Below, one piece after another: positions 1,661-40,159 of a stretch of 64,000 bases of DNA. Made by a program: the position numbers and the translations under genes. Origin of the DNA: Octopus vulgaris (Eukaryota); contig OX597825.1 of the NCBI GenBank assembly GCA_951406725.2, forward strand, positions 9,362,001 to 9,426,000. Reading direction: 5' to 3'. The notes under the pieces are model-generated. The model saw only the letters and a list, made by a program, of their open reading frames with translations. It searched no databases and was not told the DNA's origin. Positions within the stretch are counted from its first letter, which is position 1; each line of letters begins with the position of its first letter.

Positions 1661-2745
1661 ATATCGATCGCAAGTGCCTTTCAATGTTGTATTACATCAC
1701 TTCGACAACATCTTTTAACCACCAAGTGTCTAAATGCATCCCTTGACCAAGTTTATATATATGAGGCTGATAACATCACAAGACTTCGAAGGCAGCTCCT
1801 TGTTTGATAACGTTAAATACATGCCCAAAGAAGTCGCACGACTCTACCACAGTATCATCAGATGAAAGAATGAGCAGATGACTATGCATGGATATGTTAG
1901 TAGAAAGCTCAGAGATGATAGGAACATCGATCATCAGAACAGCATATCATGGACCAATAACCGGATTGCTACCTCCCACTTTGAAGGGTATGCGTTTGCA
2001 AACCAGGAACAGGAAATATCAACCAAATATCTGATACCCAAAAGGAATAGAGATGCAGGAAAAGCAGTAAGATGCGACCACCGATGCAGACTTTGTGGAG
2101 TTAACACCGATGATATCACACATATCATAAGGAGTTGTCCGAAAATGTCATCGCGGTATTATCTACTGATGAGACATGATATTGTAGCTCGGACACTATA
2201 ATGAAATCTGTCGGAAGAATAAACCTGAAACAAAAAATAAGAACCCAGAGTATGGTAGAAGTCATACCCACTCAAAATAGAAAGGAGCACTGGTGGAACG
2301 TCCCAGTGAAACCCCAATAAAATGTAAGCACAACAGACCTGATATAATTATTTGGGATAGAGAAGAGAAACTATGTAGAGTTGTGGAAATTCTCTCCCAG
2401 CGGAGGATAACATAAAGCTGAAGATCAGTGAAAAAGAGAACACCTACACTGAGCCATTGAGAAATCTGCAGTTATTCTATCTAGATTATAAGTTCAGGTT
2501 TATACCTGTAATTATTGGGGATCTGAGATATGTAGCACACTGCCTAAATACCAATCTTCAGAAATTAGGCTTCTCAGAACCAGAAAGGAGAAAGCTTATT
2601 CGAAGACTACCGATCCAATCCATCACTGGAACTGCGAAAATGTCTAAAATTTTCCAGATATTTATACTTTAAGTATATATGAGCATGTCTAAATATGGAG
2701 GTGTATGCATGAGAATGTATACATAAAACAAAACATACAAATCTG

Positions 2746-2777
<32 letters not shown>

Positions 2778-2880
2778 AATATCCTGTTGTTGATGTTGAA
2801 ATTCCAATGAAGGAGCCTTGGACCTAGGTTAGAAAACGGTTCGTTCTATATCGACAAGAAATCTTAAAATAAAACTGAAT
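1661..2880 (+). pseudogene. 5'-truncated, disrupted RLE-type non-LTR retrotransposon (R4/Dong-like), C-terminal part plus 3' UTR
   Basis: Translates to QEQEISTKYL...CRLCGVNTDDITHIIRSCPKMSSRYYLLMRHDIVA (CCHC finger plus RHD). Downstream frames give HNRPDIIIWDREEKLCRVVEI and FIPVIIGDL (PD-(D/E)xK restriction-like endonuclease). Frameshifts and stops present. Confidence 0.85.
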
Positions 2881-2910
2881 AATGACATACATATAGATAT
2901 AGAGAAAGAG

Positions 2911-2953
<43 letters not shown>

Positions 2954-5322
2954 AAGTTGAGGAGAAAATAGCGGTTGCAACAAACTTGTGTTATTCAGAA
3001 AACCCATTTTCAGCCTCGCTTTCAGGAATATTCACGGTATGTTTAAAACACGATTTCCTCTGTTCTCAGAAAATATAGATCTAACAATTTTCAGCGTTTA
3101 TTTCCACTTCAGTAGTTATGGGTAGCTTATTTCATAATCTCAGAGGAAACACTGCTGTATAACTATTTATGACAAACGCAAATTCTACAATCTCTAATAC
3201 AGATTGTGAAACTAATAACATACATCACATCTTCTGGGCCACAGATAGTAAAACGTATATGTAGCACTTATGAAATGTAAGGAAATATTTTTTTTAAATA
3301 AGATATATTTTGCAGTGTTTAATAGAATATTTTACTCCAAGGTATGTCATCAAATGATTTTGTTTCCAATATTTGTTCTGTTGCTGCCCTAAGTATTTTT
3401 TTTTTACTTAAAACCGATTTTGCCCTGAAGACATACCTCAGTGAATATTGAATATATTTTAGTTATATTTCTAGCTGTTTTGTAAATATATTGGGGAGGT
3501 ACCGAACATCCATATTTATATTTACGCACACTTTTCTTTCGGATTTCTATATTGTCACTATTTACTGATTTCCCGTTAAGTGTCCCGTTAAGTATAGGAA
3601 GATATTCTTAAAATACATGAAACTTTGTAGCAAATCCTAATGAAACCCTTCCTATACGTATTTCATGTATAATCTTCGTCTCTGTAAAAATCTATGTCTA
3701 AGGCTTCGAATTTTTTAGAGATATGTGCTCATGTCAACAATGAATGTCTCCTTGACATGTTTGCCCAGGCTGAGTCGTTGTAAAGCAGAGACTTCCAAAT
3801 ATACACAATGTTATTTTTTTTACGTTGACATTGATGCTATATGAATCACTTTTCTTTTTCCAGATCAGATGCTTTAATGCCAAGCGTTCCATTAGTTTGT
3901 GGCTACTGTTCGATATTTGCATCTACTTTTCTTCTCGAAATTGATATTCCATCGTCGGAATTTGAAGACTTTTGAGATTTAAGTTTCGGAATGGCTTAGA
4001 AGATGTTTTTTGGTGAAATTTGCCGGGTTTTTAATTGCTTTTTTTAATGAAATAATTATAAACGCCTAGTGAAATATATAATTGCCATTTGAATTTTACA
4101 TTCTATCTTACTGTTTGGTTAAAGTTTAGCTGTTATGTACCGGTCTGACTCATAAATTTATCGGATTCTCAAATTGGTTATATAGATCGCTTGCTTACCA
4201 TTTCAAGAATCTGTGTGTTCTTGCGCTTCGATTCATTAAAATTAAAATTATATTTAATTCCAAAATTCCAAAAATATTTCATTGACAAAATTAAATATCA
4301 ATAGGTGACACACTGTGAATCACGTAAGTAGTTCTAGTAATACACGCATTCAATTATGTGAGTATAATGTACAAATTTGTGTATATACGCACACACGAAC
4401 ACACACACACATATATATATATATGTATAGATATTATTGATATATGTACGTATGTATGTATGTATGCAAGAATGCACGCATCTATGTATTGTAGTAACTC
4501 GAAATATACTGTTACACTTTAATAATTTACATTAGTAAAACTTTGCTGAAATGAAATATTTTCTTAAAATGAAATGAATATGTCTGCCGAATTATTTATG
4601 CAAATACTTTTAACGTCGATACGTTTATCTTAGTAGATATACTATGAAAAGATTATTTTTCTTAATACTCTTACTAAAGTTTCATCAGAAGAAAGTCTGG
4701 TTTTTGAAAAAATACATACGCTTCTGATTTTATATCAATTTTTAATATATAATCTGAGTATTATTCAAACTACTTGTTTCAGTAAATTACTTTTCTACTC
4801 GCTTCGTATTCTTCGGACGGAGCGAGTAATTGCATAAATATTTCGTCTGCTTACCCAAGAAATTTAGAACTATTCATTGTCCCTCACTGAAGTTGTTCTA
4901 TGAATCATTTAGTTTGCTAAGAGACAGTATATATATATAAAATTAACTGGTTAATATAACCGTAATACATTGTCGTAAGTTTCATTTAGCAGAAATACTT
5001 GAAAAAAATCTTGCCCAAACTCTGAAGTGAATGTTATATACATTTTGGTACTGCATGCATACGAATGATTTGGTTTATGTCTATGATTGTTTGAATTGCA
5101 TAGTAGAGGTTTTCCTCTAATTTATATATATTATATATTTATATTGTGAAATTCGATTTAATACTAAATTGAATTTTTCTCTGTAAATTTGGAGTTATAC
5201 TCCCTAATATCATTATTATTGATTATTATTATTATTATTATTATTATTATTGTTGTTGTTGTTGTTGTTGTTGTTGTTATATATGCATATATATACATAC
5301 ATATGTGTACATACCTACATAC

Positions 5323-5362
<40 letters not shown>

Positions 5363-6534
5363 GCATATATGGATCCAGGACTTCAAAAATACGTGAACAA
5401 AATGAAAAACGAGAACATAAAGAAACAAAAAACGTTGGAAAGCGAGCTTTTTTCAAACAAAGAAAGAAACAAAACAGGCCACATAAAGAACAATCCCTTT
5501 GTCAGTTGTCCCCAGTTTTATCTTCTCCAAGTTCCGAAAGTTTGAACAAGATGCGACTTCATTAAAACAGTCGCAAAAAACAACGGTAAAATTTTGGTAC
5601 GACCTGGTATGTTTTTAACAAAATAAGGACATCGTAATAGGCACATATTTATTTGTAAATATAGTTATATAGCTTTAATTGAGTTCAGAAGAAAGGAATC
5701 AAAGTTACTCACTTGTTCTATAATAGGTTTTCTAAAGTGACTCTAGCGAACTGGTCAACAGTGAAATGAATTAGACAAGTCAGGAATAAAACAGATGCTT
5801 CTTGATCATGTTGTCAAACATTTATTACAAATAGTGTCTTATCATCTCTATAAATATAACACCATCTGATATTTGCCACAAAACAAGATATCTGCTTCGA
5901 CAGTACAGTGTTGTTTTTCTTTTTCTCAGTTTTCTGTTGAAGGAATTTTATTTCCCATTTATTAAATTGCGAAACTGCATGAACATTACACAATCTCCGT
6001 TGACTTGTATCTATGGATGTGGATTTTAAACATAAGAAATCAATAAAATATTTGCGATATATATAATCAGTTAATGGAATAAGTTTGAGTAATAACAGAT
6101 AGATATTTGATTAAATAAAATAACATTAAAAAAGATACCCATTTCGCTTTTGTTTCCATCACGTCATTTATATGTATATAACTGCTATATAAAATATATA
6201 TCATTTTCAAATTTAAATGTAGTTTAGACAAGGCTATATTATACGATTATTTATAAACACACCACACGCACACGTACATACATGCATACACACACACATA
6301 AACACATGCGTACACACATACACACGCAGGCACACACACACACACGCGCACAAGCAAATACACACATATAGATATGTAGATATAGATATATTTATAGATA
6401 TACATGCGGGGTAAATATATATGATTAATTATCCTTATATCAAAATATGCTTAAAATTGTATATTTGGACGATTGCTCGTATATGCCTAGATACACATGC
6501 ACACATACAAACATACACATACACATATATGTAT

Positions 6535-6786
6535 AAATCCTTTAAAATGTTTTAGCCCGAAGGCCGCGGCCATGCTGGGGCACCACCGCTGAATGATCTA
6601 CACTAATATGTGAATCCACCTCTGATACGTGGCACTTGATCAGCAAGGGGGTTCGATGCTGTTGCCCGCATCTGCGTCTCCTGTTGTGAGGTAGGTTCAT
6701 CTGGGACTCCCGACAAGAAGAGATCCAGTTTAGTTTTAAAGAAACCCATATCTACACCATGTAAGTCTCTCAGGCATTTAGGGAGT
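6535..6786 (-). mobile_element. 3' end of CR1-group (Zenon-like) LINE
   Basis: ORF2 C-terminus ILPKCLRDLHGVDMGFFKTKLDLFLSGVPDEPT...ATASNPLADQV*, followed by short 3' UTR gcggtggtgccccagcatggccgcggccttcgggctaaaac. Confidence 0.75.
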
Positions 6787-7485
6787 ATATATACATAAAT
6801 GTACATGTATGCATGCATATATGAAACTGAAAGGAAACGCTAAAAAGCATCCTGTTATGGGGCTAATTTGATTTGATGTGTGTGTGTGTGTGTGTGTGCT
6901 TGCGTGTGTGCGTGTGTGTGTGTGCTTGCGTGTGTGTGTGTGTGTGTGTGTGTGGTGATCTTTAGAATTATTGGTCGCCGCTAACATTACACTACACCGC
7001 TATTTAATCTTACCTTGGGTATTCCGTTTTCAAGTCATTTTCACTCCACAATGAGTAGTTCGTGGCTTCGGATGTAAATCACTTTCGAATAAGAGCCCGC
7101 GAGTGAGCCCCTATTCGGTGGGTCGACCTTCTAAAAACAACAGTCGAGTGTCCGACAGTTTACCTTTCCTGATACAATGGATTATTTATTCATGGTCTTG
7201 ACTAAGTAAAATTACTTTCAATATACGTATGACGCTTAGGAATGAATGGAGGAACAAACAAAGATAAAACTATTGGTTACTAAAACAAGCCCGTCTTTCA
7301 CCAGGGTAGACCTATGCAGGATGAGAAGGCAAGGCTAATGTGTGAATATATATAAGAAAATGACAAAAGACATATTTATTTTTTTATAAGGAACAGTTTT
7401 TTTTACTTAACTGTTTCTTATGAAAAAATAAATTTCACCTATGTATGGTGAGATTTGAATCACCCTATATATAAATATATATGTA

Positions 7486-7579
<94 letters not shown>

Positions 7580-8524
7580 GAGATAGAGAGAGAGACAGAC
7601 AGATAGACAGGTAGATACATAGATAGGTATTGCTGAACCGCTAAAATTCGGTGACGTAAACATACACACAGACACACACACACATATGTATGTATGTGTG
7701 CATGCATGCATATATATATATATATATATATATAAAGGTGTGTCTGTGTCATTAAGTATATATACATACTGGTATTTACGACCGTGTGATTATATACGAC
7801 TGTGTTCCTGTGTTTGGAGATTTTCCTCATGTATTGTAACACATTGACAGTTTCGCCATTACTGTAAAATTCTATTCACAATAAAATTATTTTGAGGTTT
7901 CTTCACCAACCATTCATAAGAATTTTCGCCAAATACTTCAAGGACATCCATCAAGTCTTCGCTGCTGCTATAGCGAATCCAAGTGATTTTTCCCCTCTTT
8001 TTTTTTATTGGAGTTTAGAAAGCAGTGTGCAAATCTATATATTGTAACAAAATTGTCTTTGTACTACGTTATACATGACGTATTGAAGTGTACGTGTACA
8101 AGTATTTGTACCACTAGGAATATGTGTACGCGCACGCTTGTGTATGAGTGAGTGAGTCAGTGTATATGTGTGTCCGTGAGCGTTGCAATTTATTTCTTGT
8201 ATTCTCAATTTTCGTGTGTCGCATGTCAACCGACATGTTACGCACCGATGCCATAATCACGAAATAGGTGACCATTTCCCCTCTGAAACCATGACATATG
8301 AAATATAGAATAATATTAATTCCATTTGATCTCTTTTTTCTCAGTCACCAATTTACTATCAGAAGAATAGTTTCTTTGTCAAAAGAATAACAAAAAGCAT
8401 AATAAACTTTTGTATTTTATATTTTTTTTTAATTTTGTCTCACATAGACATTCATCTACCTGTGTGTTTATATGTATGTATGTAGTGTGTACATATACAT
8501 ATATATATATATAAATAGACACAT

Positions 8525-15932: not shown

Positions 15933-16331
15933 AGGCGCAGGAGTGGCTGTGTGGTAAGTAGCTTGCTAACCAACCACATGGTTCCGGGTTCAGTCCCACT
16001 GCGTGGCATCTTGGGCAAGTGTCAACTGCTATAGCCCCGGGCCGACCAATGCCTTGTGAGTGGATTTGGTAGACGGAAACTGAAGGAAGCCTGTCGTATA
16101 TATGTATATATATATATAAGTGTGTGGGTTTGTTTGTCCCCCTAGCATTGCTTGACAACCGATGCTGGTGTGTTTACGACCCCGTCACTTAGCGGTTCGG
16201 CAAAAGAGACCGATAGAATAAGTACTAGGCTTACAAAGAATAAGTTCCGGGGTCGATTTGCTCGACTAAAGGCGGCGCTCCAGCATGGCCGCAGTCAAAT
16301 GACTGAAACAAGTAAAAGAGAAAAAAGAGAG
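15933..16331 (+). mobile_element. SINE family A, full length (tRNA head, CORE-like segment, internal microsatellite, LINE-like tail)
   Basis: A-box TGGCTGTGTGG, B-box GGTTCAGTCCC, CORE-like cttgggcaagtg, tail ...gctccagcatggccgcagtcaaatgactgaaacaagtaaaagag. More than 10 copies or fragments in the window. Confidence 0.93.
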
Positions 16332-16497
16332 AGGCGCAGGAGTGGCTGTGTGGTAAGTAGCTTGCTAACCAGCCACATGGTTCCGGGTTCAGTCCCACTG
16401 CGTGGCATCTTGGGCAAGTGTCTTCTGCTATAGCCCCGGGCCGACCAATGCCTTGTGAGTGGATTTGGTAGACAGAAACTGAAAGAAGCCCGTCGTA

Positions 16498-16528
<31 letters not shown>

Positions 16529-16748
16529 GCGTGTGTGTGTGTGTGTTTGTGTGTCTGTGTTTGTCCCCCTAGCATTGCTTCACGACCGATGCTGGTGTGT
16601 TTACGTCCCCGTCACTTAGCGGTTTGGCAAAAGAGACCGATAGAATACGTACTGGGCTTACAAAAGAATAAGTCCCGGGGTCGAGTTGCTCGACTAAAGG
16701 CGGCGCTCCAGCATGGCTGCAGTCAAATGACTGAAACAAGTAAAAGAG
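16332..16748 (+). mobile_element. SINE family A, full length, head-to-tail with the previous copy
   Basis: Near-identical to 15933-16331; begins within that copy's (AAAAGAG)n tail. Confidence 0.93.
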
Positions 16749-31557: not shown

Positions 31558-32007
31558 GGATCTTTTCGGTTCGAACGGTAGTTTTTTCTAGCGGTGTCAT
31601 ATGAAATTGTCACCCATAATTATGAACCTAGTATCGATCTATTGCATTTCAATCTGTTTTAGGGTTAGGGTTAGTTAGGGTCAGTAAGGGTTAGGGTTAG
31701 GATTAGGGTTAGGGTGGGTGGATGGGTATCTTTTTTCTTCAGAAATGTAAATAAACCCAATCTGTTTCTTAAACGAGGGACATATTCATACGGCACACAA
31801 TGTTTTCACCTCAATAGACGTCATTGATTGGTTGAAATTGCAGAAATTGAAGAAAACAACAATAAATATCTTACAAACTATAGAATTTTCTCAATAAAGC
31901 CGAGAGAAAAAGATGTATAAACACATTCTACCAGTATACGAAGTTTAAAAGTGTTTAGTTACGTGGAAATCATTTTTAAAAAACTGCCGTTCAAACTGAA
32001 AAGATCC
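31558..32007 (-). mobile_element. Merlin-like MITE with internal (TTAGGG)n, copy 2 (inverted relative to copy 1)
   Basis: GG...CC TIRs; TSD gactaatg (31550-31557) / gactaata (32008-32015); six perfect TTAGGG units within 31659-31714. Confidence 0.88.
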
Positions 32008-35249: not shown

Positions 35250-35448
35250 TACTCTTTGCTCTTTTACTTATTTCAGTCATTTGACTGTGGCCATGATGGA
35301 GCACCGCCTTTAGTAGAGCAAATCAACCCCAGGACTTATTCTTTGTAAGCTTAGTACTTATTTTATCGGTTTCTTTTGCCGAACCGCTAAGTTACGGGGA
35401 CGTAAACACACCAGCATCGGTTGTCAAGTGATGTTAGGGGACATACAA
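35250..35448 (-). mobile_element. SINE family A, 3' half (probably the partner of 35914-38512)
   Basis: Reverse complement of the SINE A 3' half. Confidence 0.88.
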
Positions 35449-35465
35449 ACTGTTCACATAGATTC

Positions 35466-35630
35466 AGGTGCAGGAGTGGCTGTGTGGTAAGTAGCTTGTT
35501 TACCAACCACATGGTTCCGGGTTCAGTCCCACTGCGTGGCACCTTGGGCAACTGTCTTCTACTATAGCCTCGGGCCGAATAAAGCCTTGTGAGTGGATTT
35601 GGTAGACGGAAACTGAAAGAAGCCCGTCGT

Positions 35631-35662
<32 letters not shown>

Positions 35663-35884
35663 ATGCGTGTGTGTGTTTGTGTGCCTGCGTTTGTCCCCCT
35701 AGCATTGCTTGACAACCGATGGTGGTGTGTTTATGTCCCCGTTACCTAGCGGTTCTGCAAAAGTGACAGATAAATAAGTACTGGGCTTACAAAAGAATAA
35801 GTGCCGGGGTCGAGTTGCTCGATTAAAGGCGGTTTTCCAGCATGGCCGCAGTCAAATGACTGAAACAAGTAAAAGAGAAAGAGT

Positions 35885-35885
<1 letters not shown>
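35466..35885 (+). mobile_element. SINE family A, full length, nested in an opposite-strand copy
   Basis: Aligns end to end with 16332-16748. Confidence 0.92.
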
Positions 35886-35915
<30 letters not shown>

Positions 35916-36349
35916 CGACGAGCTTCTTTCAGTTTCCGTTTACCAACTGCACTCACAAGGCTTTGTTCGGCCCGAGGCTATAGTAGAAGACACTTGCCCA
36001 AGATGCCACCCAGTGGAACTGAACCCGGAACCATGTGGTTGGTTAGCAAGCTACTTTATTTTATATAATTTGCCACTAGGGCAGCACACAGAGTAGCTGC
36101 GGGCTGGACAAGGACATTAATGGATGATGGTGGTGGTGGATGACGATGGTGATGGGAGAAGTCAGAAAGCGCCCGCCGACTTTTGCTTCTCTAAAACAAT
36201 GTTCTTCTTTTTTTTTCAATAATTTACAAAATTTCAAAAATTACAAAAAATTCGAAAAATGTTCACAAAAATTTCAATTTACAATTTACACTTTTAAAAG
36301 TCTCTTCAGAGGCAATAAACCTCTGTCACAATGTAACACAATTACAATT

Positions 36350-37543
36350 TTACGTTACCCGACCGATGAACTCTCTTGCTTTAATGACGCAATCGTCCAT
36401 CGTCAGGCTTCCGCATACAGGTATGACTTGCAAGAGATCCTCCGGGAAAGAATTCTCGATCCTGCACATATCATTTTCGAGTAGGACCTCCGCAGCCAGC
36501 TGCGAAGGCCACTCGGGATACTCCATGCAGGACCGAAGTCCCTCCCATTGGTTTCTCTTCCTCCTCTTACGTATTTCATTTTCTACAGTGCCTCCTTTAT
36601 GGAAGAGGACTACATAAAATTTCTCCGGCATCACAACCGCCGGAGGACACATGGGAGACGCCCTCTGGGTGTTACAGTCCGCTGGTGGCGTACCGTTCCT
36701 CTTTTTCTTTTTCTTTTTACGCTGGGCCTCGGGAGGTTGAGGTTCCGGTGCTATACGCACCGGGTCCTCTTTTTCTTCCGCAGCCTCCGGTTCCTTTGGT
36801 TGGTCACCATTGCTCCCCACTCTTCTTTTTCTTTTGGAGGAGGATTTTTCCACCTCCTCACTTTGTTTCTCTCCCTCCATTGGTGGGGCAGGGAGAGGCT
36901 CTGATATTAACTTCTCCAGGATCCTACTCTGGTTCCTGGGGCAGTTTTTCTTAATGTGGCCGGTCTCCGAACACAGGTGACACTTGGGGGCGCGTCCCTC
37001 AAGTATTACCGCATACTTGGACCCGGCCATCTTCAAGAAGTCCGGCAAAACCAGACTCTTGGCCGACTGGGTCCACAGAGTCAAAGTAGCCTTTGCCCCT
37101 TCCCAGTCAGCCGCAGGCTGTATCTTCACGTTCGGGATCTTGGCGCTACCGCCACTCAGACCCCGGCGGATGGAATCTTCCACCCACTCGGGCTCAAAGC
37201 CGGGCGGCAGGCCGCAGACCCATAATCGTATCAATTTTTCCCCCTTGTAGCTGGGGAGAAACAGAATCTCTTCGCCCTCAATGGGCTTACTTGCAAATTT
37301 GCAAGCTGCTTTAGGGGAGTCAAATAGCAACCAAATCGTTGCGTATTTGACTCCCCGTTGAATATGTTTAACGGCTGGCATATAGTCTGCCAGCTCGTTC
37401 ACAATGGTGTCTCTCGGAAAAACCATGATGGTGTCGAGTGACTTTGAATATGTCCTCAGCACCACGGTTCTTTCCTCGAGTTCGTGCAAATATTTTTTGG
37501 GAGGTGTTAACTCCCACACAGTGAATTTCTTTGCCTGTGCCAT
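36350..37543 (-). CDS. Gag-like ORF1 protein, 397 aa, CCHC zinc knuckle (L1/Tx1 ORF1p-like)
   Basis: Uninterrupted ORF, GC-rich relative to its surroundings. EGRAPK-CHLCSETGHIKKNC (CX2CX4HX4C), preceded by an RRM-like region and followed by a Pro/Glu/Lys-rich linker with KRKRR and RKKKKKKR tracts. Confidence 0.85.
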   Translation of the reverse strand: MAQAKKFTVWELTPPKKYLHELEERTVVLRTYSKSLDTIMVFPRDTIVNELADYMPAVKHIQRGVKYATIWLLFDSPKAACKFASKPIEGEEILFLPSYKGEKLIRLWVCGLPPGFEPEWVEDSIRRGLSGGSAKIPNVKIQPAADWEGAKATLTLWTQSAKSLVLPDFLKMAGSKYAVILEGRAPKCHLCSETGHIKKNCPRNQSRILEKLISEPLPAPPMEGEKQSEEVEKSSSKRKRRVGSNGDQPKEPEAAEEKEDPVRIAPEPQPPEAQRKKKKKKRNGTPPADCNTQRASPMCPPAVVMPEKFYVVLFHKGGTVENEIRKRRKRNQWEGLRSCMEYPEWPSQLAAEVLLENDMCRIENSFPEDLLQVIPVCGSLTMDDCVIKAREFIGRVT

Positions 37544-37820
37544 AACGTAAAATACAACAGTTCAAAATGATAAACTAAAATTAGCCACAGAAAGGAGAAT
37601 GAAAAAATGCAACAGAAGGGAAGAAATAAAATTGAAAATGGCAGTACAAAAAAGTTTTTACAAATAAATAATAGACAGAGAAAGAGAGTTCAATTCAGAC
37701 AAAGGAATTAATTTTTCTTTTTTTTTTTTTGTTCACTTTTTCGGCCAAAAATTGTATTCCAGGCCAAATACACTGTTGGTAAAACCCTTGGTAAATAATC
37801 CTTGGTAATCCGTGGACAAC

Positions 37821-38438
37821 ACAACGACAATTTCAACAATAATTTTTTTCAGACGGACTATGCCGCTTCAAAAATACAATTTCTTTTCACTCGACACAGG
37901 CAGAAAAATTATATCTGGAGCAAAGTGGAGCCTTATTATTTGCTAAAAAATATTAAATGCTAAAAAACATTCATGCAAGTAATAAAACTTCACTAAACTC
38001 GCAAAAACACAAAACGCCCACCCGCAGTCGATTCGAACGTTCAACAATTCACGTTGAAACAACGCGACATCAATACAATTTTCTTTCCACTCGACACAGG
38101 CAGAAAAATTATATCTGGAGCAGAGTGGAGCCTTATTATCTGCTAAAAATATTAAATGCTAAAAAAAACATTAACAAGTAATAAAACAACGACAATTTCA
38201 AAAATAATTTTTGCAGACGGACTACGCCACCTCAAAAACACAATTTTCTTCACACCCGACAACAGGCAGAAAAATTATATCCGGAGCAAAGTGGAGCCTT
38301 ATTATCTGCTAAAAAATATTTAATGCTAAAAAACATTAATGCAAGTAATAAAACTTCACTTCGCTCTCAAAAATACAAAATTCCTACCTTTAGTCGAGTC
38401 TCAAGATTCAATATTTCACGTTGAAACAACGTGGCATC
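37821..38438 (-). repeat. 5' UTR tandem repeats: two ~250-bp units plus a third ~115-bp partial unit
   Basis: Core acaggcagaaaaattatatctggagc...gtggagccttattat.tgctaaaaa at ~37896, ~38096 and ~38262. Confidence 0.9.
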
Positions 38439-38449
38439 TGGAGCAGCAA

Positions 38450-38473
38450 AATAACACGTCCGAACAGTTCAGA
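38450..38473 (-). promoter_or_regulatory. Putative internal Pol II promoter motif (CGGACGTG, DPE-like)
   Basis: Element 5' end reads tctgaactgttCGGACGTGtt; (A/G)GACGTG motifs are typical near the 5' ends of invertebrate LINEs. Confidence 0.45.
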
Positions 38474-39262
38474 GGTTAGCAAGCTACTTACCACACAGCC
38501 ACTCCTGCGCCTATATATTCTTTATAAATTATTTTCTTAATTGTCTCTGCAACATCTTGTTTCTTGAATTTTTTCTCGCCGTTTGTATTTCAATAGTTTT
38601 ATTTAAAGATGAATTTAACAGTTTCTAATTTTTTTTTTTTTGTGGGGGGGGGGTGATAAGATGTTGCTGTTCTTGTTCTTACTGCGTTTGACATTCTTTC
38701 CTTTACTTTGGTTGTCATTGTCCATAATGCTGATGTCGGGATGGGTGTTGGTGATAGTGGTCGCATTGTTGTTAAAATTTAATCTTTATTTTGTTGCTGT
38801 TCTTATTGTTATAGATGTTCGTTCTTGTTATAGTTATTTTTATCACCGTCACCTATTGCATTGATATCAATGGTAGTGATGCTGCTGCGACTGCTGCTGC
38901 TGCTGCGACTGCTGCTGCTGCTGCTCCTTTCACTTACAGTCACTCTTATGTTGGTGTAGGAGGTTTTAAGTCTGTCGTTTCAAATACTCATTAAATCTTT
39001 CCGGTACTCCGTCGAAAATGTCGATACCGTGACTTTTTTTCATTAGAGGATTATGCTTCAGGAGAAAAATCTTCATCGACATCCTGATCCAGGTTACCTT
39101 AGGGAACAAAACTGTGCAAAGAGCTTTTTACCTTAAATATTTTAACCGCAATTAAACCTGACAAATCTTACGATCAATTTCAGGGATGCCATGCTGATAT
39201 AAAAACAAAACAAAAACGACGATAACAACTGAAATAATAATAATAATAATAATAATAATAAG

Positions 39263-39415: not shown

Positions 39416-40159
39416 AATATTTGTATCTCAATTCTCTTTTTCGCATTACGGGTCGGTTAAGATTAGTACCTGTTATGTACTTGGGCTGATCCCTTCCCTA
39501 TATCCCTTTGCGACAAATGTACGTATAAAATGAACTTTGCATTGTGATAAAGAAAATGTTTCTGAAAACAGACTACGGATCTTTTCGGTTTGAACATAAT
39601 TTCTAGGTAACTAAAACATTTTAAACTTCGTATACTGGTAGAATGTGTTTATAAAACATCTTTTTCTCTTGGCTTTATTGAGAAAATTCTCTAGTTTGTA
39701 AGATATTTGATGTTGTTTTTTCTTCAACTTCTGCAATTTCAACCAATCAGTGACGTCTATTGAGGTAAAAAAAACATTCTGTGCCGTATGAATATATCCC
39801 TCGTTTAAGAAACAGATTGGGTTTATTTACATTTGTGAAGAAAAACAGATACCCTTCCCCTCACCCCTAACACTAACCCTAAGCTTAACCCTAACCCTAA
39901 AACAGATTGAAATGCAATAGATCGGTACTAGGGTCATAATTATGGGTGACAATTTCATATGACACCGCTAGAAAAAACTGCCGTTCAAACCGAAAAGATC
40001 CAATATTTGTATCTCACTTCTCTTTTTCGTATTACGAGTCCGTTAAGATTAGTACCTGTTATGTACTTGGGTTCATCGTTTCCCTGTATCCCTTTATGAC
40101 AAATGTACGTATAAAATGAACTTTGCACTGTGATAAAAAAAGTTTCTGAAAATGATTAC
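39416..40159 (+). repeat. ~160-bp direct duplication (39416-39576 / 40002-40159) bracketing MITE copy 3
   Basis: Both copies start aatatttgtatctca and end gtttctgaaaa..ga.tac; the junctions coincide with the TIR ends. Confidence 0.9.
39577..40001 (+). mobile_element. Merlin-like MITE with internal (CCCTAA)n, copy 3
   Basis: Colinear with 30917-31343; left TIR has a short internal deletion; no 8-bp TSD. Confidence 0.88.

Follow-up and report, generated by a model that had tools for sequence, protein, structure and literature searches.

In a 64,000-nt stretch of the Octopus vulgaris genome (contig OX597825.1, positions 9,362,001 to 9,426,000 of the forward strand; hereafter the window), we analyzed a 2417-bp insertion on the minus strand which encodes one intact protein, ORF1, and no reverse transcriptase (RT). 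With high probability, this element belongs to a lineage of ORF1-only retroelements that occupies a single site within the tRNA-like head of an abundant short interspersed nuclear element (SINE) and that is likely mobilized in trans by L1/Tx1-type long interspersed nuclear elements (LINEs) of the same site. A first-pass annotation, made from the letters of this stretch, had already described the insertion. The insert itself was confirmed, but its SINE host, the single-site targeting and the arrays had gone unmentioned.

A multi-copy element without ORF2

Most structural features given by the first-pass annotation were found as described (Table 1): the CGGACGTG motif close to the 5' end, the repeat-containing 5' untranslated region (UTR), one intact CCHC-type open reading frame (ORF) and a 3' UTR, then estimated at about 290 bp. 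Eleven ORFs of at least 120 aa occur in the window, ten of which cross simple repeats or low-complexity sequence, ORF1 being the exception. The reported lack of an RT-encoding ORF2 holds as well, as tblastn with the ORF2 of a likely helper LINE (see below) found no ORF2 remnant in the window. Family copies are about 2.04, 2.25 or 2.45 kb long, the length steps corresponding roughly to one or two repeats of the 5' UTR, which likely acts as an internal promoter.

A 22-nt motif of the 3' tail has at least 205 exact matches in the genome (reversed control: 0). The genome search with the element's DNA gave 66 matches, many of them nearly full length, from 39 scored of 2686 candidates, and at least 150 matches were obtained with the ORF1 protein. 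Given these tail motifs and the truncated copies with target repeats of their own, the prediction of multiple copies with independent insertions is borne out. Cutting the retrieved loci at the target sites delivered 117 units. The ORF1-only families, A (that of the window copy) to E, measure about 2.0–2.5 kb and show N-terminal identities of about 40–90% to the window protein. An ORF of at least 380 aa with the zinc knuckle is kept in 19 of the 117 units as assembled, and most units have broken ORFs.

The annotation had also considered that other copies might continue from ORF1 into ORF2. None of 40 loci picked by ORF1 similarity (out of at least 150 protein matches; copies at least 69% identical to the query) does so ahead of its 3' end: 38 have no ORF2 match within 4 kb, and in the other two it lies past the 3' junction, in a neighboring LINE.

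One target site in a SINE

The 3' flank is the same in 27 of the 30 top DNA matches, window copy included. In a sample of 60 regions spanning 77 tail matches, taken from 100 listed and not selected by flank, 63 of the 77 tails are followed by AAGTAGCTT with at most one mismatch, and the target is present with at most two mismatches in 54 of 58 sampled loci. Likewise, 36 of the 40 loci picked by protein similarity end at the SINE site. In the window, the SINE head is split by the insert, the first 22 nt standing upstream and the rest downstream; an empty SINE copy matches positions 38507-38474 at 100%, and most family copies have the same flank. ARAGORN calls the empty copy tRNA-Ser(GCT)-like at a relaxed threshold (70%), which is a weak call, and the site is located at the anticodon arm. 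OK and OR1 are published names of octopus SINEs. OR2 is another, named in the accessible part of its source (PMC4758252).

By exact matching, two variants of the site occur empty 26,278 and 27,671 times (together 53,949) and a third one 3,269 times. The first two variants have 469 exact filled junctions, about 1% of their exact empty sites, and both figures are underestimates owing to the exact matching. Family E sits in the third SINE variant, which its 5' end matches, just as the commonest 5' ends of families A, B and C match an abundant one. Family E and its variant appear to be older because they are more diverged.

The SINE flanks on either side are alike in nearly all copies, so that head, coding insert and body might instead form a composite SINE, moving as one unit that goes back to a single old insertion. 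We regard the chance of this as next to negligible: 9 of 53 single insertions are 5'-truncated copies that follow an intact SINE head at this very site, which is also occupied by several ORF1-only families and by two families of full-size LINEs, and the SINEs that flank different insertions belong to different variants.

Junctions and target duplication

At the 3' junction, the A-rich end noted by the first-pass annotation is no poly(A) tail: RAAATA directly abuts the target in 164 of 172 junctions. The first two bases of the target complete an AATAAA over the boundary. At four loci (L048, L057, L078 and L090), the last 5–9 nt of the tail are repeated at the 3' end, which suggests slippage at the start of reverse transcription.

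The window insert is bracketed by 16-nt direct repeats without mismatch, in line with the size and the perfect repeat stated by the first-pass annotation. However, they are probably no target site duplication over their full length but consist of about 10 bp of duplicated target and about 6 bases carried by the element. The repeats of the nine truncated single insertions, which bear the signature of target-primed integration, measure 2, 7, 7, 8, 9, 9, 10, 10 and 14 bp (median 9). In full-length insertions, the 5' side reproduces target variants at positions 7-10 in 3 of 3 cases, but those at positions 11-16 in only 3 of 20. Because variants at positions 11-16 are rarely found on both sides, the last bases of the 5' copy are likely element-borne and rebuild the site.

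Arrays

Head-to-tail arrays were found at 13 or more of 58 loci, as against a site occupancy of about 1%, although tail-based sampling favors arrays somewhat. They mix different families and subfamilies. Within family C, distances average 0.65% inside arrays versus 1.5% between loci. Some array neighbors are just 0.05–0.1% apart, and for several units the most similar copy lies on a different contig. Family-B units standing behind other elements are drawn from both B subfamilies and differ from solo copies by 0–0.2%, which rules out a single composite master for the arrays.

How the arrays arose is a separate question. The RT might jump from one co-packaged RNA template to another, or units might be duplicated locally in tandem, and one of these routes, instead of repeated insertion at a rebuilt site, might be the main source of the arrays; either would leave the identity of the element unchanged. 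The abundance of arrays despite the low occupancy of the site, the nearly identical neighbors and the mosaic nature of the copies speak for this explanation; the mixture of families within arrays and the units with their closest relatives on other contigs speak against it, whereas the solo-like B units argue against one composite master but not against template jumping. On balance we consider it possible, yet rather doubtful.

Long family-C arrays with at least five to six units in a row were observed at L062/L063 (G000:C1:223694300-223714299), L096/L097 (G000:C5:78740000-78759999) and L048, and downstream of some of these arrays stands a family-B unit or a full-size LINE.

Age of the window copy

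The youth ascribed to the window copy was not confirmed. Its nearest sibling is 94% identical over positions 287-2417, and it has no near-identical twin. Its N-terminal half is at least 5% distant from all 27 compared copies, its C-terminal half only about 1–2% from several; the window copy thus is a mosaic of subfamilies. Families B and C, which include copies just 0–0.3% apart, look more recently active. Module swapping near the zinc knuckle was also seen elsewhere, with family-A N-terminal halves joined to a C-terminal half of the family-C type (L042, L044 and L091 versus L060 and L048).

ORF1 encodes a predicted RNA-binding protein

Structure prediction had been proposed as a check on the ORF, with a ZCCHC3-like protein among the expected outcomes, and gave a fitting picture. 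The AlphaFold2 model (mean predicted local distance difference test score, pLDDT, 78.6) contains two RRMs and the CCHC knuckle, with disorder at residues 228-305. Pfam zf-CCHC matches the knuckle at residues 187-202 with E=0.0011 and 19.4 bits, slightly below the cut-off of 20.8. The N-terminal half resembles tandem RRM proteins (Foldseek E about 1e-4) and superimposes on La with a VIA Z of 8.8 and a root-mean-square deviation of 2.5 over 81 residues. A ZCCHC3-type Atlas cluster (RBD_ZCCHC3_1st/2nd and zf-CCHC) matches ORF1 at 0.90, with 168 shared features. ORF1 is predicted to be an RNA-binding protein with the RRM-RRM-CCHC layout of ZCCHC3-type proteins, although a Pfam scan of the protein itself gave no ZCCHC3 domain match. 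It gave no L1 ORF1 family either, and L1 ORF1p was not among the fold matches listed.

In contrast to ZCCHC3-type proteins, ORF1 has an additional C-terminal alpha/beta domain, for which no clear structural match emerged. This domain is kept across the ORF1-only families and was modeled alone at a pLDDT of 82.5. Foldseek found no match for it at E<=0.001, the best VIA Z was 5.2, the Atlas returned none, and a profile comparison with the C-terminus of the helper ORF1 gave no match. The closest named relative of ORF1 is an uncharacterized protein of Octopus sinensis (61% identical), and the remaining named relatives are octopod proteins from Octopus and Argonauta. A profile search in other cephalopods returned the O. 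sinensis protein alone.

Selection and origin of ORF1

The ratio of nonsynonymous to synonymous substitution rates (dN/dS), measured against the window copy over residues 8-205, is 0.15–0.37 in 18 of 18 intact copies at a dS of 0.14 to 1.7. ORF1 is clearly under purifying selection, which the first-pass annotation had suggested as a possibility.

Such selection would also be expected if the octopus had domesticated the sequence as a host gene for its own use, in the manner of L1TD1 or ZCCHC3, and the ZCCHC3-like Atlas cluster fits that idea too. Nevertheless, we regard it as extremely unlikely. Hundreds of copies are dispersed over the genome with target duplications, most units have broken ORFs, and selection between actively copying lineages is what a cis-acting ORF1 would lead to expect. 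No host function is indicated for the octopus elements.

A tree of 33 rows unites the 15 ORF1-only rows and the O. sinensis protein in one clade (16 rows, 100/100) on a stem of 1.59, and the helper ORF1s fall outside this clade. Identity between ORF1-only and helper ORF1s is 27%. These data bear on a further explanation, namely that an autonomous LINE recently gave rise to the element by internal deletion or premature ending, ORF1 being intact by youth alone. Its target, 3' tail and 5' motif are indeed shared with LINEs. However, the low identity, the separate long-stemmed clade and a dN/dS of about 0.2 across dS values up to 1.7 show that the element did not arise from today's helper by a fresh deletion, and none of the 40 sampled copies, all at least 69% identical to the query, is linked to ORF2. 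Consequently, we judge a recent origin of this kind very unlikely and favor an ORF1-only lineage of its own.

A second ORF1-only lineage was noticed at L042 (G000:C4:80136750-80140999, minus) and L040 (G000:C7, ~13498500-13499900, minus). It forms tandem 1.72-kb units, its ORF1 is about 27% identical to the window protein and falls outside its clade, and its 3' end, which carries AATAAA and a GCCC-loop-GGGT hairpin, is located off the SINE site of family A.

Likely helper LINEs and a shared hairpin

The arrays hold full-size LINEs of 5.4–5.7 kb, and two full-size LINE families use the site. The LINE at L036 has an intact ORF2 of 1133 aa with the Pfam domains Exo_endo_phos, RVT_1 and zf-RVT, the best solved relative of which is human L1 ORF2p (E=8e-66); its ORF1 is split across two frames. 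One other copy is 99.9% identical to it over 700 nt. Among the relatives of this LINE, 29 of 30 3' ends lie at the same SINE site. Thus, an L1/Tx1-type partner, as postulated by the first-pass annotation, does exist, and the full-size LINEs at the site are likely the helpers of the ORF1-only elements. Judged by sequence, the helper appears to be an L1-group LINE with Tx1-like behavior, i.e., target preference. For its RT no named Tx1 reference was retrieved, as 118 of the 120 homologs listed have no informative name and ten clusters contained 0 named members.

About 15 nt before the 3' end, ORF1-only elements and LINEs have a hairpin in common, with 71 of 72 cells paired in 18 sequences and compensatory changes in two of its four pairs; slid controls were 11–68% paired. 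The hairpin likely represents a recognition signal for the RT.

Other full-size L1/Tx1-type LINEs are nested within ORF1-only elements at L039 (oriented 1725-7016) and L038 (oriented ~3300-8100). At L039, the LINE break is accompanied by a 22-nt duplication of the host ORF1-only element.

Several points weigh against our interpretation. Trans-mobilization, transcript ends and nick sites are predictions from sequence comparison. Element and LINEs resemble each other over short stretches only: one LINE agrees in 23 of 27 nt at its 3' end, the other in 15 of 16 nt close to its 5' end. The hairpin comprises only four pairs and was selected from the same sequences it was tested on, and its compensatory-pair count was equaled by 51 of 500 shuffles, a control that disregards sequence relatedness. 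Given how much the two ORF1s differ, the ORF1-only elements do not descend directly from the present helper. Long branches meet at the base of their clade, about which the tree tool warned, and this weakens any placement of a sister group. The dN/dS set consists of just the 19 copies with ORFs of at least 380 aa out of 117 units, the comparison of target positions 7-10 covers three cases only, and 4 of the 58 loci have no recognizable target.

Proposed mechanism

Taking the ORF1-only elements as passengers of the LINEs at their site, the following course of events can be envisioned. Transcription by RNA polymerase II would be driven by the repeated 5' UTR, and the AATAAA completed by the target would end the RNA a little way inside the target. 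The element's own ORF1p, with its two predicted RRMs and knuckle, would package this RNA in cis, and we propose that ORF1 is under purifying selection because of this packaging. Helper ORF2p, bound to the 3' hairpin, would then nick the SINE ahead of AAGTAG and use the nick to prime reverse transcription. As the end of the RNA would stem from the target, it would pair with the primer, so that exact junctions without poly(A) would result. A second nick about 10 bp off, plus an element 5' terminus with about 6 target-like bases, would finally rebuild a complete site ahead of each full-length copy and thereby feed the arrays.

A more far-reaching picture, which we offer tentatively and rate at somewhat less than an even chance, is that of a three-tier parasite system. 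An old and independent guild of ORF1-only elements would share one SINE site with Tx1-type helpers, its 5' end mimicking the target and tracking the SINE subfamilies; the target-completed poly(A) signal would make the RNA read into the target and pair with it, and the rebuilt site would turn occupied SINEs into hotspots, about 20-fold over chance.

Comparison with known systems

HAL1 of mammals, to which the first-pass annotation had likened the insert, has a poly(A) tail and is not known to be site-specific, and HeT-A forms mixed head-to-tail arrays with TART/TAHRE. In the accessible parts of the literature, to which all citations here refer, HAL1 is a non-autonomous LINE derivative with ORF1p alone (PMC5753468, PMC5786205), and the L1, Jockey and CR1 clades are reported to include ORF1-only derivatives (PMC5786205). 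HeT-A, a Drosophila element of the Jockey clade, and Ag-Sponge of the CR1 clade need an autonomous partner (PMC5786205), and HeT-A is targeted (PMC5537684).

The octopus element has no ORF2, occurs in multiple copies with independent insertions and 5' truncations, and shares a (short) 3' end with its partner, as is characteristic of non-autonomous LINEs with ORF1 present. It resembles HAL1 in being non-autonomous and ORF1p-only. However, HAL1 is derived from mammalian L1, whereas the octopus ORF1 has an RRM-RRM-CCHC layout and showed no link to mammalian L1 ORF1 in Pfam or among the fold matches listed, and the element is site-specific and lacks poly(A). The likeness to HeT-A and Ag-Sponge consists in an ORF1-only structure with an autonomous partner, and for HeT-A also in targeting, but these belong to other LINE clades, the octopus target is an internal SINE site instead of chromosome ends, and, unlike HeT-A, the octopus element has no evident host function. 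Consequently, it works like HAL1 or HeT-A but is not HAL1 in the strict sense; of the first-pass label, the multi-copy ORF1-only LINE derivative remains.

Tx1-clade LINEs are comparable in their endonuclease/RT, their fixed repetitive targets, including other transposons, and their passengers with the same target. Tx1L inserts in Tx1D, Keno in U2 small nuclear RNA (snRNA) genes, Kibi and Koshi in microsatellites and Tx1-Mar in Mariner-N4, and SINEU are non-coding passengers of target-specific Tx1 LINEs (PMC4494074). In contrast to SINEU, the octopus passengers code for ORF1, and no tRNA-derived SINE is among the Tx1-clade targets named in the accessible part of that source, which comprise DNA transposons, long terminal repeat elements, snRNA and 5S genes, satellites and microsatellites.

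For Octopus vulgaris, a 2026 annotation lists 80 L1-Tx1 families, 13 of them recently active, and the accessible text and supplement make no mention of target specificity, nesting or HAL1 (PMC13282606). Term searches of the accessible parts of PMC4758252 and PMC8869645 gave no relevant passage. No account of this octopus ORF1-only family was found in the literature searched, with Repbase, Dfam, most subscription papers and bioRxiv supplements lying outside the search; earlier cataloging of the family is quite possible.

Taken as a LINE derivative, the element adds a target-specific L1/Tx1-type case to the known ORF1-only ones. A selected ORF1 on active families makes the question of why such elements keep ORF1 a testable one. 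Furthermore, a sequence-specific endonuclease/RT, exact junctions without poly(A) and passengers sharing a short hairpin bear on how LINEs choose target and template. For octopus repeat annotation it matters that such arrays can pass as genes, the uncharacterized O. sinensis protein being an example.

Features of the insert and its surroundings

Table 1. Features of the window insert and of its host SINE (window positions)
Feature	Position	Strand	Remarks
ORF1-only non-autonomous retroelement, family A	36057..38473	-	2417 bp
5' copy of target	38474..38489	-	positions 1-10 likely true duplication, 11-16 likely element-borne (5' end)
3' copy of target	36041..36056	-	anticodon-arm region of SINE head
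CGGACGTG 5' motif	38455..38462	-	element position 12; also near 5' end of the L036 full-size LINE
5' UTR	37544..38473	-	930 nt; three repeats of ~170-200 nt
ORF1	36350..37543	-	397 aa, ATG start, intact; reads 37543-36350
ORF1 domains	(residues)		RRM ~14-102; RRM 103-183; CCHC knuckle 187-202; disordered basic linker 228-305; C-terminal alpha/beta domain 305-397
3' UTR	36057..36349	-	293 nt, without poly(A)
3' hairpin	36071..36083	-	TGCC-N5-GGCA, 4 bp; also in full-size LINEs
AATAAA	36055..36060	-	spans element/target junction; predicted polyadenylation signal
Host SINE head, 5' part	38490..38511	-	tRNA-like, A-box region; left of insertion site
Host SINE remainder	35887..36040	-	B-box region and body to (TA)n tract; 90% to empty copy

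An Rfam scan of positions 35400-38700 gave 24 matches, all under the gathering scores and mostly (TA)n, and no ribozyme or snRNA head among them. At positions 35471-36056, the host SINE abuts a second, inverted SINE copy (160-nt arms, 93% complementary), and a comparable inverted SINE pair is found at 15938-16653. In addition, the window contains short interstitial TTAGGG/CCCTAA-like tracts at 31659-31715 and 39865-39900.
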